From IMG/VR virus record IMGVR_UViG_3300042366_000091, positions 1 to 36,214 of that record: DNA of 36,214 nucleotides; one strand, 5' to 3'. Made by a program: the position numbers and the translations under genes. Within the stretch, counting starts at the first letter, position 1; each line of letters opens with the position of its first letter. Shown here piece after piece: positions 2,329 through 36,214 of the stretch. Source of the DNA: a virus. Lineage: Duplodnaviria > Caudoviricetes. The notes beneath the pieces were generated by a model. The model searched no databases. It saw nothing but the letters and a program-made list of their open reading frames with translations, and was not told where the DNA came from.

Positions 2329-2577
2329 ATGAAATTCTGTGTTAACTGTGCCAACTTTGTCCTGCAAGACAAGCTAGAACATCGCCCTGACCTGGGGCTG
2401 TGCAGCCGTGTAGATGGGTCTAGGGACCTTGTAACAGGAGCCTGGGAGGACGGACGTAGGTGGCAGTGGGCAAAGGTCGTACGCTCGCCTTACGCACCTT
2501 CTGACGGCCCTGCATACTGCGGTCCTCAAGGCAAGTACTGGGTAGCTAAGGAGGAGGACGGTCATGTCGGATTTTGA
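2329..2577 (+). CDS. Cys-rich hypothetical protein (CVNC...C...CGPQGKYW)
   Basis: GGAGGTTTCC leader; CxxC motif. Confidence 0.8.
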   Translation: MKFCVNCANFVLQDKLEHRPDLGLCSRVDGSRDLVTGAWEDGRRWQWAKVVRSPYAPSDGPAYCGPQGKYWVAKEEDGHVGF

Positions 2578-3463
2578 CCACTCCTTCCGTAAGCAAGCAT
2601 GGTGGTCTAGCGATACACGCAAGGCCGTCAACGGGAAAGCTAACGAAGTCATCCTCCAAAAGCTCGACATGATGGAGGTAGAAGACCTGTCTGACGTAGA
2701 AGCTGTCCAGATGGGTCATGTGATGGAGCCTGTTATCGGCAGGCTTGCTGAACAAAAGCTAGGGGTACAACTCACAAAGGTAGAAGAGTTCAGGACTCAC
2801 CCGAAAGAGTCTTGGTTGCGTAGCCACTTTGACTTTGCAGGTACACAAAATGGTGAGACGATTCTTGTCGAATGCAAGAACTACAACGCTGCTGTGCGTT
2901 CAAAGTTTGACGCAGAAGCTGGCATCATCCCTGTATCTGACATGGCTCAGCTTGTCCACGAAGCTACGGTGTTCGGCGTTAGGAAGATTTATCTGGCTGT
3001 TCTATTCGGTGGTCAAGAGTTCTTCCTCGCACCTTTCAACATTGCTGACGAACAAAAGCAAGACCTGATAAAGCAGATGGCCGTTTACTGGGCAGCAGTG
3101 CAAAGCAGGACTCCCCTGCCAGCATCTTCTACCAGTGAAGCCAAGCTCATGTTCCCAACGTCAGCACCAGACACAACTGTCCTGGCTGACTCTACGATGG
3201 AAGAACTGGCTACTCAACTCTTTCGCGTCAACGCAGAGCGCAAGGCGCTGGAGACAGCGGAAGACACGCTCAAAGCTGCAATCCAACAAAGGATGGGAAG
3301 CAAAGCCGCTCTTGTTGACATTGCAGGCAACGTGCTAGCGACATGGAAGAACGATAAGGCAAGCATGAAGTTTGACCAAAAGCTCTTCCAGCAGTCCATG
3401 CCTGACATCTACAAACAGTTTGTGCGTGAGGTTCCTGGCCCACGTAAATTTCTTATCAAGTAG
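2564..3463 (+). CDS. YqaJ-like viral recombinase exonuclease (lambda-exonuclease family)
   Basis: GHVMEP, HPKESWLRSHFDF, ILVECKN, AQLVHE, YLAVLFGGQEF motifs; next to RecT-like gene. Confidence 0.9.
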   Translation: MSDFDHSFRKQAWWSSDTRKAVNGKANEVILQKLDMMEVEDLSDVEAVQMGHVMEPVIGRLAEQKLGVQLTKVEEFRTHPKESWLRSHFDFAGTQNGETILVECKNYNAAVRSKFDAEAGIIPVSDMAQLVHEATVFGVRKIYLAVLFGGQEFFLAPFNIADEQKQDLIKQMAVYWAAVQSRTPLPASSTSEAKLMFPTSAPDTTVLADSTMEELATQLFRVNAERKALETAEDTLKAAIQQRMGSKAALVDIAGNVLATWKNDKASMKFDQKLFQQSMPDIYKQFVREVPGPRKFLIK

Positions 3464-3474
3464 GAGGTTTCCTA

Positions 3475-3648
3475 ATGTTCATCTCGAAAGCAGAGAAACA
3501 AGACATACATAGCAAGCTAGAGCTTCTGGAAAACGCTGTAGCTAACCTGACCATCATCATAGAAAAACTGTTAGAGCCAGCACCGTACGGTAGGTGCAAA
3601 GACGGAACACCACGTATGAAACCTGGACGTAAAGGAGTAAAGAAATGA
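3475..3648 (+). CDS. 57-aa protein with APYG...DGTP..KPGRK (AT-hook-like) tail; not in ORF track
   Basis: GGAGGTTTCC leader, ATG 3475, stop overlaps ATG 3645. Confidence 0.75.
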   Translation: MFISKAEKQDIHSKLELLENAVANLTIIIEKLLEPAPYGRCKDGTPRMKPGRKGVKK

Positions 3649-4526
3649 GCAACATCGTACCCTTCTCAGAGATTGAGAACATGGGCCTAGTAGCTGCCAA
3701 GTCAAAGCTGTTCGGGTTCAAAACACCAGAAGAAGCTATGTCTATCATGCTTCTGTGCCAAGCAGAGAACCTGCATCCTGCTGTAGCTATGCGTGACTAC
3801 CATGTCATCCAGGGTCGTCCTGCCCTGAAAGCAGACGCAATGCTTGCAAGGTTTCAGGCTGCTGGTGGCAAGGTGGACTGGAAGGTCTACACGAATGAGC
3901 AAGTCACAGGACTCTTCTCTCATCCACAAGGCGGTAGCCTAGAAGTGACATGGACTATCAGTCAGGCCAAGTCGATAGGTATTGCCAATAAAGACAACTG
4001 GCGTAACTACCCTCGCGCCATGCTACGTGCAAGGGTTCTGTCAGAAGGTATCCGCGCTGTCTACCCTGGCGTAGTTGTAGGTGTCTACACGCCAGAAGAA
4101 GTACAGGACTTCGAGCCTGCCAAGCCTGCTGCTGCTGTAGATATGGGTGTGGCAGAGCGGGTAGATGCACAACCTGTTGTTGTTGAAGAGAAGAACGACG
4201 GGGCTTTCAAGCTCTACGTTCCTGGCAATGACAAGCCATACAACAGCTTCTACTCAGAGGAAGACTGGATTGCCGCATATAGTGGTCTAGTTGCCCGTAT
4301 ATCCTCCTCTAGCAAGCTCACAGAGACTGAGAAGACGAGCAAGTACCTAGCCCTGCAAGAAGCAAACAAAGACGTTGTAGAGGCTTTTATGAGCATTCAC
4401 AAGGTCAAGCTGAAAGGGGAGATTGTCAAGGCTGGAGGGCATACCAACCCAAAGTCGCAGATGTCCCCGTCAGGTATGGATTCGCTACAAAGCGATCCAG
4501 AATTCTGCGACACCTACGAGAAGTAG
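3645..4526 (+). CDS. RecT/Red-beta-like single-strand annealing protein
   Basis: HVIQGRPAL, NWRNYPRAMLRAR, GVYTPEE motifs; downstream of YqaJ. Confidence 0.85.
   Translation: MSNIVPFSEIENMGLVAAKSKLFGFKTPEEAMSIMLLCQAENLHPAVAMRDYHVIQGRPALKADAMLARFQAAGGKVDWKVYTNEQVTGLFSHPQGGSLEVTWTISQAKSIGIANKDNWRNYPRAMLRARVLSEGIRAVYPGVVVGVYTPEEVQDFEPAKPAAAVDMGVAERVDAQPVVVEEKNDGAFKLYVPGNDKPYNSFYSEEDWIAAYSGLVARISSSSKLTETEKTSKYLALQEANKDVVEAFMSIHKVKLKGEIVKAGGHTNPKSQMSPSGMDSLQSDPEFCDTYEK
4434..4454 (+). promoter_or_regulatory. Putative programmed -1 ribosomal frameshift signal
   Basis: Internal SD GGAGG (4434-4438), 9 nt, then X XXY YYZ heptamer C CCA AAG (4448-4454) phased in the RecT frame. Confidence 0.7.
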
Positions 4527-4678
4527 GACCGCTTACACAGAAGCAGTCGTATGAGCTTTACAGGGACACAAGGCTTGCAGCACATATCGAAGTCTTTCGA
4601 AAACAAGGACATCGAATCACTACGGAAGATGTTAGTCAGGGTGGGTCGGTCTTTGCCAGATACCACTATCAACCATGA
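4448..4678 (+). CDS. Winged helix-turn-helix domain (HTH_39-like) in the -1 frame, no start codon; probable frameshift extension of RecT
   Basis: PKVADVPVRYGFATKRSRILRHLREVGPLTQKQSYELYRDTRLAAHIEVFRKQGHRITTEDVSQGGSVFARYHYQP*; no ATG/GTG/TTG after in-frame stop 4328-4330. Confidence 0.75.
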   Translation, partial: PKVADVPVRYGFATKRSRILRHLREVGPLTQKQSYELYRDTRLAAHIEVFRKQGHRITTEDVSQGGSVFARYHYQP

Positions 4679-4688
4679 AAGGAAAGTG

Positions 4689-4997
4689 ATGGCTGAACAT
4701 AAAGAGATGCCCGGAAAAGGCGTTATGTTTTACGAGGAGAAGGCCAAGCGTAAGAGCGACAAAGGCCCGGACTACAAAGGCTTCCTAGTTCTGGAGATGG
4801 ACTACAAAGCTGGTGACAAGCTCAAGCTCAGCGCGTGGGAAAAGCCAACCAGTATGGGCTACAACCTTCTGTCTCTGGCAGAAGACAACTGGGCACGAAA
4901 GCAGAAAGAAACACCCAGAGAGGTGCGGTCAGGCTACCAACGCAGGGAGAACAACGACTATGCGTATCGGCCTAAAGACTCTGACGTGCCTTTCTGA
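4689..4997 (+). CDS. Putative ssDNA-binding protein (PDYKG motif, acidic DSDVPF tail)
   Basis: AAGGA SD before ATG 4689; SSB-like C-terminus; position after SSAP. Confidence 0.7.
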   Translation: MAEHKEMPGKGVMFYEEKAKRKSDKGPDYKGFLVLEMDYKAGDKLKLSAWEKPTSMGYNLLSLAEDNWARKQKETPREVRSGYQRRENNDYAYRPKDSDVPF

Positions 4998-33482: not shown

Positions 33483-33528
33483 GTCTTTACTGCACTAAAG
33501 CAGTGTCCTAACTTAAGCGGAGGTTTCC

Positions 33529-33774
33529 ATGACAAAAGACAAATTCCAGCATTCAGACTTTGTTCGCAATCCGGGCAAATATGAGTTGTTCAAGACTGCT
33601 ACTGTTCGCAACCTTATGGTCAATCAAGACGGTGAGGTTAAAGAGGGAACAATCGTAGGCATCCGTTTTGCGGGTGTTAAGCACAATCGTCTGTACCGCA
33701 GGGATGAGCCGATCTATGTGCTTAGCACCGGTGATGTGTGCTATGCCAATAACCTGTGTGAATTCACACTTTGA
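33529..33774 (+). CDS. Early hypothetical protein
   Basis: GGAGGTTTCC leader; 81 aa. Confidence 0.8.
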   Translation: MTKDKFQHSDFVRNPGKYELFKTATVRNLMVNQDGEVKEGTIVGIRFAGVKHNRLYRRDEPIYVLSTGDVCYANNLCEFTL

Positions 33775-33847
33775 CAATCCAGCCTGTGCCAGTGTGACAG
33801 ACTGGCATGGGGTGAGGTTGTCTCACTGTCTAACGGAGGTTTCCACT

Positions 33848-33985
33848 ATGCGCTATCAAAAACACTTTGACCATTGGACTGTGCTTTACCCTAACGGTCA
33901 CCGGGCCTACTTCAAGTCTGAGGAGGTCGCTAGGGCTGAGGCAGTTCTGTACGGCATCGGGCTTGTTTCCCCTCTTTACGCCTAA
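33848..33985 (+). CDS. Early 45-aa protein (MRYQKHFDHW...)
   Basis: GGAGGTTTCC leader fixes the start at 33848. Confidence 0.75.
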   Translation: MRYQKHFDHWTVLYPNGHRAYFKSEEVARAEAVLYGIGLVSPLYA

Positions 33986-34003
33986 CCATCGTAGGTTTCC
34001 ACC

Positions 34004-34204
34004 ATGCAATCACTTCCTAACATCGAGAAAAGTGCTTTCCATTCCGGCACCTATGTGGGCTATGGCCGTGGTCAGGTGTGGCGCATCCGCAAAAGCTCAG
34101 GCATTTACGGGGTCTGGTGGGCTTACAGTCTCCAAAACCCTAACGATAGGCTGTACGCTTGGAAGTTGTCAGACCTAAGCGCAAAGCTTGCCCAACCTGC
34201 CTAA
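34004..34204 (+). CDS. Early hypothetical protein
   Basis: GTAGGTTTCCACC leader. Confidence 0.75.
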   Translation: MQSLPNIEKSAFHSGTYVGYGRGQVWRIRKSSGIYGVWWAYSLQNPNDRLYAWKLSDLSAKLAQPA

Positions 34205-34284
34205 CTCATCCCCTAGGGGCTTGCACAGCCCCTACAGGATGCGCTAGCATCAAGACCCTAACTTAACTACTGGAGGTTTCCACC

Positions 34285-34602
34285 ATGTCAGACAAGATCA
34301 AAGACCACGTTCTTAGCATCATCAACACTCTAGAAACAGGGTTTGGCGATGACGTAAACGAAGATGGACAGCCTTTTTCCGCTTTTGACTACCTGCAAGA
34401 TGCCCTAGACATCGAATGGGTAGTAAACAGTAAAAAAGAATACCTAGGCGCTCGCATCCTTGTGGCTTTTGGTGGGCCAAACATCTGGGTGGATACCCGC
34501 AGGGGCATTGTTGAGGGCGCGTGGTGGGGCGACAGCTACTCACGCACGTTCAAGGACAACATCGGTCTAGATGACGCCCTGCAAGAACTTCACGCCTGCT
34601 AA
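34285..34602 (+). CDS. Acidic early protein (DYL.DALDI...LVAFGGPNIW family)
   Basis: GGAGGTTTCCACC leader; recognisable phage motif. Confidence 0.82.
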   Translation: MSDKIKDHVLSIINTLETGFGDDVNEDGQPFSAFDYLQDALDIEWVVNSKKEYLGARILVAFGGPNIWVDTRRGIVEGAWWGDSYSRTFKDNIGLDDALQELHAC

Positions 34603-34678
34603 CCCCACCCTAACCCTACCCCAGGCATTGCAAGGCGTCTGGGGGCGTTTAAACCCGTTTTAGAAGGATGTTTCCACC

Positions 34679-34888
34679 ATGAAAACCACCACAGATCAAT
34701 TCCATGTCATGCGTGGGCATGTTGCTGAGGGCTGCATTGTCATTGCCCCCAGTGGGCGAGAGTTCACCATCAAGAACACTATGCACGGATGGATGGTGCA
34801 TGGCCCGGACGGACGCCCCATATCTGGCTATCTGCTAGCAGCGGCTGATGTTGAGTATTTTGTCGTAAACGGACTATCTAGCAGCTAA
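34679..34888 (+). CDS. Early hypothetical protein
   Basis: GGATGTTTCCACC leader. Confidence 0.75.
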   Translation: MKTTTDQFHVMRGHVAEGCIVIAPSGREFTIKNTMHGWMVHGPDGRPISGYLLAAADVEYFVVNGLSSS

Positions 34889-34898
34889 GGAGAACACC

Positions 34899-35090
34899 AT
34901 GCAAGAACCCAGGATGGACACTTACAAACGATTCCCCCGTACTCTGGAAGAGGCATTCCCAGACCACTACCGGGAACAGTTTGACCCCCTGTACCAGCCC
35001 CCGCATGACAGAACAGACCCAGACGTGTGGGTGATGCTGGCCTGTGCTTTTGCTGCTGGCTTTTTAACCGGACTGATTGTGTGGGCTTGA
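34899..35090 (+). CDS. Small membrane protein (RFPRTLEEAFP motif + C-terminal TM)
   Basis: AAGGAG SD; recognisable phage motif. Confidence 0.8.
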   Translation: MQEPRMDTYKRFPRTLEEAFPDHYREQFDPLYQPPHDRTDPDVWVMLACAFAAGFLTGLIVWA

Positions 35091-35116
35091 CAAGTCCCTA
35101 GGCAGTCAGGTAGAGT
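35087..35116 (+). promoter_or_regulatory. Sigma70-type promoter of the structured RNA locus
   Basis: TTGACA (35087-35092), 18 nt, TAGAGT (35111-35116). Confidence 0.6.
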
Positions 35117-35119
35117 CCC

Positions 35120-35227
35120 CATCGTTGTCGTCGAAAGCAACATGAGGCCGCTTAGGAGAGCATCTTGCCCGAAGGGATTCCCCGAGGGTTTCGACCAAGA
35201 TGTTCTACCCAAGTGGCCTTTTTGTTT
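35120..35227 (+). ncRNA. Putative ~105-nt pseudoknotted RNA/attenuator ending in a terminator-like stem and U-tract
   Basis: Loop GTCGAAA pairs with TTTCGAC; AGGCCGCTT/AAGTGGCCT and AGAGCATCTTG/CAAGATGTTCT stems; TTTTTGTTT. Confidence 0.65.
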
Positions 35228-35239
35228 CCTAACTGACAA

Positions 35240-35425
35240 CCGCCCATGTGTCGGGGTAAACACGGCAGGCATGGGGGATATCCGGTACTGTGGGTAAGCT
35301 CTGAGAGACCGGGATGGGTGGCGAAGATAGCGCCCTTGAGCGAACGGCTGTCGGGCATGTGCGGCTCCGTCCAGCATGTAAGGTTTAGCCCTGTCTCTGG
35401 GAGGGCTAGGCTTTGCTCACCATCC
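35240..35425 (+). ncRNA. Putative second multi-stem structured RNA/DNA element
   Basis: At least five consecutive stems with G-U pairs. Confidence 0.5.
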
Positions 35426-35440
35426 AGCATAGAGGTCAGT

Positions 35441-35851
35441 ATGGGAAAACGTAAACAAGAAAGAAGAAAAAAAAGAAATCAAAAGTTTATAGATAGTCTA
35501 AAGAACAAGGCTATGAGACTTGACTGGATTGCTAAGTCATCAGGCATGAGTGACAACGCAGTTGCAGACATGTTAGACCTAGCTCACTGGTCATTTACAC
35601 AAACAGAAAAATGGAGAGAAGTCAGACGACAAGCTGTGGAAAAGTACGGGACAACTTGTGCTAAGTGTGGGAGACCCCAGAGTCCTGGCTATCCCGTCAA
35701 CATTGACCACATCAAGCCCCGTAAGTTCTACCCGCATCTAGCGTATGACCTAGACAACTTGCAACCACTGTGCGGCCCGTGCAACAAAGAAAAAGGTAAC
35801 GGCCCACCTGTTGACTATAGAAAAATTACAAGAGTTATCCAGCAAAGATAA
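35441..35851 (+). CDS. HNH endonuclease (McrA-like, CxxC...HNH...CxxC), 136 aa with basic N-terminus
   Basis: WREVRR...CAKCG...NIDHIKP...DNLQPLCGPCNKEK; GAGGT SD before ATG 35441. Confidence 0.9.
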   Translation: MGKRKQERRKKRNQKFIDSLKNKAMRLDWIAKSSGMSDNAVADMLDLAHWSFTQTEKWREVRRQAVEKYGTTCAKCGRPQSPGYPVNIDHIKPRKFYPHLAYDLDNLQPLCGPCNKEKGNGPPVDYRKITRVIQQR

Positions 35852-35891
35852 CCTGCCAAACCTTCCTAACTTTCACATAAAGGATGTTTCC

Positions 35892-36002
35892 ATGACTTGG
35901 CCATTCCCACCGTTTCCCAACCCTCTAGACCGACCTGGGCAAGCCCCAGGCCCGGACAAGTTCAACCCCAGCAAGGACAAATATGAGCCAGCCCCCTATT
36001 GA
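35892..36002 (+). CDS. 36-aa short allele of 94-327
   Basis: Same N- and C-termini; mostly synonymous divergence. Confidence 0.65.
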   Translation: MTWPFPPFPNPLDRPGQAPGPDKFNPSKDKYEPAPY

Positions 36003-36192
36003 CAAAGGAGTGCCTATCCCTAATCGCTTTCCCTTTGAACAAATGGAAGTAGGGGATAGCTTCGCAGTCCCAGACGGACTGAACAGAACTACCGTGTCTG
36101 TGGCTGCTAAGCGGTACGGTAGGAAGAACGATAGAGAGTTCATCACAAGGACTATGCCCGACAAGACTGTCAGATGCTGGAGGACAAAATGA
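35983..36192 (+). CDS. Allele of 308-517 (identical protein)
   Basis: 8 synonymous substitutions. Confidence 0.85.
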   Translation: MSQPPIDKGVPIPNRFPFEQMEVGDSFAVPDGLNRTTVSVAAKRYGRKNDREFITRTMPDKTVRCWRTK

Positions 36193-36214
36193 ATGTTGGA
36201 GATATCGTGCAGGT

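Follow-up and report, generated by a model that had tools for sequence, protein, structure and literature searches.

The window analyzed here is a virus record of 36,214 bases, found in lake and freshwater metagenomes. It carries a recombination block in which a YqaJ/RecE-like exonuclease gene is followed by a 57-aa open reading frame (ORF), a recT-like annealase gene, and an SSB-like gene (Table 1). The exonuclease is likely the annealase's partner, and its gene lies beside recT, as in RecT/Red-beta annealase systems. When 28 ORFs of the window were scanned against PHROGs, we recognized terminase, portal, and major head genes and two HNH genes; no polymerase, helicase, primase, or initiator was recognized among these 28. 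The initial annotation of this DNA had spoken of a phage with no initiator, a description that holds for the 28 scanned ORFs and the ORF lists, its sole basis. No tRNA genes were found in the window. The two ends of the window (35811-36214 and 1-520) repeat near-identical genes with small differences; therefore, the record overlaps itself imperfectly. A repeated GGAGGTTTCC(ACC)ATG motif precedes several small early genes (33519-35896, also 84-97 and 2319-2332) and is a translation-start module common to them.

Table 1. Features of the recombination block, with positions in the window
Feature	Positions	Strand	Basis or remark
YqaJ/RecE-like exonuclease	2564..3463	+	Pfam YqaJ, E 4e-8; phrog_434 RecE-like, E 1.5e-44
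recT-like annealase gene, 0-frame product 293 aa	3645..4526	+	Pfam RecT, E 1e-7; phrog_561, E 2e-22
RecT C-terminal domain (small beta hairpin and helical bundle, ~residues 186-265), common to both predicted forms	4200..4440	+	pLDDT >90 over residues 191-260
Internal SD-like GGAGG, 9 nt ahead of the heptamer; likely stimulator	4434..4438	+	Enrichment of SD-type motifs; Gly codon bias
Slippery heptamer C CCA AAG in the RecT frame; predicted -1 shift site	4448..4454	+	Sequence and conservation
-1 frame extension (74 aa) of a basic linker plus the HTH_39 winged helix, Pfam match at ~4493-4645; no start codon	4454..4678	+	Pfam, model, pN/pS
Outer stem of the initial annotation, overlapping the shift site	4454..4511	+	Pairing present in the window, not conserved
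Inner hairpin, 22 nt past the heptamer; role doubtful	4477..4499	+	Retained by the nearest clade: 61/63 cells pair, with 0 compensatory changes
SSB-like gene with its own SD	4689..4997	+	phrog_18154 SSB, weak match, E 0.009

We assign the recT product to the RecT/Red-beta single-strand annealing proteins on its Pfam profile, which scores above the cut-off, and on the fold of its core; annealing is its predicted activity. In the structural model (m36d03552ec83), an annealase core is followed by a disordered linker, a folded C-domain, and a disordered tail. The top structural matches of the model were the N-terminal domain of lambda Red-beta (7ujl; E 9e-4, Z 7.0, rmsd 3.8, 128 aligned) and LiRecT (7ub2; Z 6.2). 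Like those proteins, the product combines this core fold with a linker and a small C-domain and has an exonuclease gene adjoining its own. However, as far as the review of them shows, Red-beta and LiRecT have one product each; the words "frameshift" and "winged" are absent from the portion of its text available (PMC11611040). The C-domain of the window's protein had no usable match in PHROGs, PDB sequences, or the Atlas, a structure search gave generic helical matches only, and no match to the C-domain of Red-beta was established. Past the shift site, the 0-frame product has a 23-aa acidic tail with a charge of -4; among 46 representative relatives, these tails are 6-23 aa long with a median charge of -2. 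Because 20 of the 46 end in Phe, we considered the tail as a mimic of the SSB C terminus. We dropped this idea because the Ile-Leu codons of the -1 frame account for the Phe-stop.

The initial annotation had proposed that a programmed -1 frameshift appends a winged-helix domain to this annealase. The site that it named is present as described: C CCA AAG lies in the RecT frame with GGAGG 9 nt upstream. The -1 frame between 4331 and 4678 is indeed without ATG, GTG, or TTG, its near-cognate codons being confined to ATT at 4502, CTG at 4505, and later ones. It matches HTH_39 (PF14090; E 9e-8, 32.3 bits against a cut-off of 21.3), and the matching region was modeled as a winged helix with three helices and a beta hairpin (pLDDT 85). 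We recomputed the lengths of the two predicted products and obtained the same values, 293 aa for the 0-frame form with its acidic tail and 344 aa for the slipped form, whose extension has a net charge of +6. The heptamer by itself is unremarkable: the plus strand of the window holds 80 X XXY YYZ heptamers with an A/T triplet, four of them CCCAAAG. The surprise lies in its conservation, not in its mere presence.

We found a winged helix behind the RecT C-domain in 236 records (the window included; scans overlap and some contigs were fetched twice, so that there are 147 distinct 160-nt junctions in 64 clusters under 90% identity, and common descent makes the counts overstate independence). In every one of the 236, the domain lies in the -1 frame and a heptamer stands in frame ahead of it, with no 0 or +1 case. 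The heptamer is CCCAAAG in 203 records, CCCAAAA in 22, and AAAAAAG in 11. The last group represents a swap to the dnaX motif in which the frame, the domain, and the 3' stem are retained, and in this clade a -1 frame stop lies two codons ahead of A AAA AAG. Our first scan had covered 80 RecT relatives. In 61, the winged helix was present, always in the -1 frame behind CCCAAAG or CCCAAAA; in the other 19, which are close relatives, it was absent and is thus dispensable, and 18 of these 19 had no heptamer. On a second core, none of 67 domain-less relatives had CCCAAA. Copies of the winged helix outside this setting look different: among 16 that do not follow the C-domain, there are 13 free genes, each of which has a start and lacks the heptamer; the other 3 have the heptamer and are cut by a contig edge. 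A later scan added 30 free-standing HTH_39 copies, 28 of them with an in-frame start, for a total of 41/43. The initial annotation had proposed checking related recT loci for conservation of the heptamer, the SD, and the lack of a start, and the outcome agreed with its reading: homologues behind RecT keep the heptamer, and SD-type motifs precede it in nearly all representatives (see below), although a canonical ATG, GTG, or TTG is found near the domain start in 19/236 records.

We then considered how far the heptamer could be explained by the protein that it encodes. For this we took 46 representatives that stay below 90% identity, 45 of them full length, with a median RecT identity of 61%. 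The representatives were chosen by having the motif, and the informative figure is therefore the zero records without it. In the 45 full-length sequences, the codon before the Pro ends in C whether it specifies Ser, Asn, Leu, His, Thr, Gly, Asp, or Pro, and no other invariant third base was found in 218 other ungapped columns. At four other invariant prolines, the commonest codon accounts for just 17-22 of the 45 sequences, and codon use would predict C CCA at 8% of Pro positions. A Pro-Lys in both frames would likewise force CCCAAAR. A -1 frame stop lies 0-2 codons ahead of the heptamer in 9/46 representatives; therefore, the -1 frame is entered at the site and not read from upstream.

The second conserved element is the SD. 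In the nine sequences nearest to the window, GGAGGGC and CCCAAAG are invariant, while the spacer between them and the nine bases that follow vary. More widely, an SD-type motif precedes the heptamer in 44/46 representatives, compared with 21% of control positions. The Gly codon that forms the SD is GGA or GGG in 37/40 cases versus 264/773 elsewhere in RecT; in 4/5 relatives that lost the domain, the Gly codon at this position is GGT.

These observations bear on a rival reading, in which re-initiation at a weak TTG, CTG, or ATT where helix 1 begins would express the winged helix as a small gene of its own, with the heptamer reflecting a protein constraint. Free-standing HTH_39 is common (8,610 clusters at E 0.001), and one clade (10 records) has an ATG two codons ahead of the second Leu of helix 1. 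Although that Leu codon is TTG in 24/46 representatives, it is CTG, CTC, or TTA in 21/46 (CTG in the window), and a start there would remove conserved residues that the free-standing copies retain. A separate gene would also leave unexplained why silent positions are frozen, why the motif was swapped to AAAAAAG, why an SD lies upstream, and why the heptamer is lost together with the domain. We therefore regard this explanation as very improbable.

The initial annotation had also named two pairings 3' of the heptamer as part of the signal. Both exist in the window, and the stretch from 4454 to 4515 folds at -26 kcal/mol (z -4.6). However, the comparison did not support them as a stimulator: the outer stem starts on the last base of the heptamer and is broken in all near relatives aligned, and we rejected it in this role, which it probably does not have. 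Most 3' stimulators begin 6-9 nt downstream (PMC5009743, partial text), and in bacteria a 3' stem-loop or pseudoknot is not obligatory (PMC4066793, partial text). Neither a pseudoknot nor a strong stem at +5 to +10 is present in the window. Across the representatives, downstream windows with z < -2 occur in 9/46 versus 5/92 controls, and a strong stem starting 5-10 nt past the site occurs in 17/46 versus 15% of controls; pseudoknots are not enriched (5/46 versus 19%). One clade has an 11-bp stem at +6 with one compensatory pair, and this stem is retained with altered pairs in the AAAAAAG clade. Since 3' stems are found only in some clades, the SD in nearly all representatives, and the motif in all records with the domain, the comparison indicates that the shared signal is the SD plus the heptamer and that the stems are clade specific.

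The comparison also shows selection on the protein of the -1 frame past the site. The winged helix has a pN/pS of 0.21 in its own frame versus 1.6 and 2.8 in the other frames, its recognition helix is invariant across relatives, and the extension, 66-86 aa long, is basic in 46/46 representatives (+3 to +7, median +6). The ratios indicate that the winged helix is under purifying selection. This matters for a regulatory reading in which the frameshift is real and serves mainly to bring shifted ribosomes to the start of the SSB-like gene, coupling its translation to that of recT, with the winged helix secondary. The stop of the winged helix overlaps the next start in 34/46 representatives by script, or 29 after removal of 5 mis-picks, and in a clade with another tail (tail-2, described below) the -1 frame runs across the SSB start. 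However, the next gene has its own SD in 38/46 and starts 10 nt past the winged-helix stop in the window, and the domain is under purifying selection with an invariant recognition helix. We consider it improbable that coupling is the main purpose.

We searched for natural in-frame fusions of the annealase and the winged helix, bearing in mind that such searches are weak evidence of absence. There was none among 41 candidates, none among the best 150 of 8,610 (10 inspected; a 377-aa match is a triple winged-helix protein), and, judged by length, none in the best 120 of 6,541. A further search gave four long candidates. One of these, the 214-aa P0271, changes frame within the C-domain and continues as the winged helix; it has no N terminus and is a singleton from a single contig, and we rejected it as an indel product. 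P0271 shows that read-throughs made by indels occur, and slippage during transcription, an indel from sequencing, or a fusion gene in decay could in principle give the layout seen at recT. At the window's site, however, there is no homopolymer longer than 3, and the check for an indel error proposed in the initial annotation came out clean: no indel is present at the site in contigs from four runs, one of them RNA (this run, X20, contains fragments of a relative only and is no evidence of expression). The only indels listed, at 3959/3962, are in one divergent contig. The layout is seen again in many independent assemblies and is kept across cores that are 31-44% identical. Moreover, all 236 records shift in one direction only, and one conserved direction is a mark of ribosomal shifting (PMC3711429, partial text). 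An artifact or slippage of this kind is the least credible of the explanations considered here.

Taken together, the recT loci have the marks used to recognize bacterial -1 frameshifting: an X XXY YYZ heptamer of a shift-prone class in the 0 frame, nucleotide conservation beyond the need of the protein with a single direction, and an SD-like element 6-17 nt upstream. Weighing against this reading are the lack of a family-wide 3' stimulator, the lack of a clean in-frame fusion, the starts near the domain in some records, and the loss of the domain from 19/80 relatives. Comparison strongly supports the programmed -1 frameshift with an upstream SD put forward in the initial annotation. Thus, recT very probably undergoes programmed -1 ribosomal frameshifting at C CCA AAG.

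The relatives also differ in what stands on either side of the site. The C-domain, heptamer, and winged helix occur together on three annealase cores, the window's type (105/146), one that is 44% identical to it, and one that is 31% identical; loci with other cores are L101, L123, L305-L317, and those of the L110 type. In the family of the 31%-identical core, this cassette is present in 13/80 records and absent in 67. The sharing among three cores suggests cassette exchange. A quick tree, used only to ask for more than one change and leaving out 15 distant actinobacterial loci, short rows, and 3 motif-filter failures, has 6 changes of domain label, at least 3 of which are forced by well-supported branches.

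In the tail-2 clade (L170-L175, L179-L184, L221, and L268-L302), the site is kept in 35/35 records, as CCCAAAC in 23 and CCCAAAG in 12, and the -1 frame encodes a basic tail of 59-60 aa in place of the winged helix. Purifying selection acts on the -1 frame in the 12 codons directly past the RecT stop (pN/pS 0.25), where no start is conserved and the GTG is missing in 10/26 variants; the second half of the tail merely shadows the SSB-like gene. We found no usable match for the tail in PHROGs, PDB sequences, or the Atlas. A consensus fold of this clade gave nothing, though single sequences fold well. In a short-tail clade, Gly-Thr-Gln is kept with silent changes between the RecT stop and any possible start. 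Two further loci (L076:3834-3989 and L222:2949) have CCCAAAG and an upstream AGGAGG with a third -1 tail of 51-52 aa, perhaps the decayed remnant of a winged helix.

HTH_39 genes with their own ATG stand free upstream in related operons (L084, L187, L314, L315, L330, L331, L334, L335, L349, L351, L354, and L382), and the RecT of those operons has no frameshift tail. No free HTH_39 gene was seen alongside the fused form within the flanks fetched. The presence of these free genes upstream in related operons suggests that the winged helix was a free gene captured as an optional domain that was later swapped or lost. Two free-standing HTH_39 genes, L485 and L486, have an ATG out of frame across A-rich runs, an indel or slippage unrelated to RecT. 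Separately, five relatives without the winged helix (L336, L337, L352, L355, and L379) have an in-frame A AAA AAT 16-19 nt ahead of the RecT stop. In the genome collection, HTH_39 behind RecT was found in none of 46 records, L222 having the heptamer with its other tail, and no host was found.

We propose an explanation in four steps. The first is the site itself, described above: its frames, the absence of a start, its conservation, and the selection on the -1 frame. In the second, following the rules of E. coli, tRNA-Pro would re-pair from CCA to CCC in tandem with tRNA-Lys from AAG to AAA, giving a product that reads Asn-Pro-Lys and then Val-Ala-Asp. In E. coli, C_CC.A_AA.G was the most efficient motif, reaching 54% frameshifting when combined with the IS3 pseudoknot, and A_AA.A_AA.G ranked in the top three (PMC4066793, partial text). 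In the third, pairing of the SD with the anti-SD would be the family-wide stimulator, with 3' stems helping in some clades only; an SD 6-17 nt upstream stimulates -1 frameshifting, according to the same partial text. The share of ribosomes that slip would trade the acidic tail for the basic winged-helix extension. Judged on the comparative evidence, these three steps are jointly highly probable, only a shade less so than the shift itself.

The fourth step, the weakest, concerns function. The cores of Red-beta and LiRecT form filaments (PMC11611040, partial text); therefore, the two forms, both of which have the oligomerizing core, would co-assemble. The resulting mixed filaments would carry winged helices on a flexible tether at a set fraction of subunits, likely the minority, and these would hold the annealase on double-stranded phage DNA beside ends resected by the exonuclease. 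We give about an even chance to the long form being a DNA tether on an annealing filament near exonuclease-made ends. A smaller but real chance goes to an alternative that accepts the frameshift and differs at this step only, in which the long form is a repressor acting in autoregulation or a module that contacts the exonuclease, SSB, or a host protein. The fold of the winged helix is generic, with transcription regulators, Z-alpha domains, and scaffold winged helices tied at Z 6-8 in a fold search; in 10 distinct records, free-standing copies are placed ~2.2-2.4 kb upstream within related operons, like many small regulators; and the C-domain of Red-beta is a protein-binding module (PMC11611040, partial text). 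However, an annealase core is needless for a repressor, and the extension is basic in every representative. No operator-like repeat or other target for the winged helix stood out in the window, which is weak evidence either way; repeats of the GGAGGTTTCCACCATG family upstream of early genes look like repeated ribosome-binding sites, and we rejected them as operators. Between the two, the DNA-tether role is likelier than a regulatory or protein-binding one.

We compared the recT site with known cases of frameshifting. In IS3/IS1-family elements, the shift joins a DNA-binding part to a catalytic domain; the two forms of dnaX are tau and gamma; and the heptamer of copA is CCCAAAG. Like recT, E. 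coli dnaX has an upstream SD-like element and X XXA AAG in a gene of DNA metabolism and gives two forms that differ in whether they have a C-terminal domain (PMC6771820, partial text), and the 11 AAAAAAG records carry its very motif. However, the dnaX shift shortens the protein and has a stem-loop as a fixed part, whereas the recT shift lengthens it with no family-wide 3' structure. The IS3/IS1 family (IS911 and IS3) resembles recT in an SD 6-17 nt upstream, X XXA AAG, a longer fused product, and the use of a heptamer class whose best member in an E. coli survey is C_CC.A_AA.G (PMC4066793, partial text), but in recT the 0 frame already encodes the whole catalytic part, to which the shift would add a DNA-binding-type domain. 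E. coli copA, giving CopA(Z), is likewise an efficient bacterial -1 shift (PMC9548414 and PMC6182138, partial texts); it is a truncating one that acts through a pseudoknot in an unrelated protein. Among phage frameshifts, lambda gpG/gpGT and the Ig-like capsid and tail extensions of T3, T7, A2, and A118 set the ratio of short and extended subunits of one oligomer and involve a mobile domain captured out of frame (PMC5009743, partial text). Those are virion or assembly proteins, in contrast to a recombination enzyme with a winged helix.

In the first 300,000 characters of that review (PMC5009743), the phage cases encountered are mainly tail, capsid, and cro genes, and "recombinase" is absent. 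The terms "recombin," "RecT," and "annealing" are absent from the available part of PMC10885494, and no RecT cluster is shown in that of PMC3711429. In open full text, where subscription journals are largely missing, we found no description of frameshifting in a phage recombination or annealing gene. On these comparisons, the mechanism is a known one, and recT of this large lake-phage group is a widespread and well-conserved case of it, with unusually clean comparative support, in a gene class for which no description was found.

In the sources consulted, phage frameshifts come almost entirely from tail-chaperone, capsid, and tail genes, and here annotation misses the winged-helix extension: the GenBank record MW202825.1 (L081, locus 3318-3528) has no more than a 37-aa "helix-turn-helix domain" called from an internal ATG, and the heptamer and SD lie upstream of it. 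The family makes visible how a free gene may become an optional domain by capture and subsequently be replaced or lost. A two-form annealase is predicted whose ratio would be set at one 7-nt site, and the dosage of an accessory domain on the filaments of RecT/Red-beta proteins, which underlie recombineering, becomes directly testable. More speculatively, and with a probability that we place well below that of the tether, the C-domain and slippery site may form a frameshift socket that moves between cores, appends a winged helix, a short basic peptide, or perhaps a third tail, and sets the fraction of the filament that bears tails, with the winged-helix form aiming recombination or recombination-primed replication at a specific phage site. 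If this is true, a phage without a recognizable initiator, helicase, or polymerase would have its recombination or recombination-primed replication targeted by the tail of its annealase.
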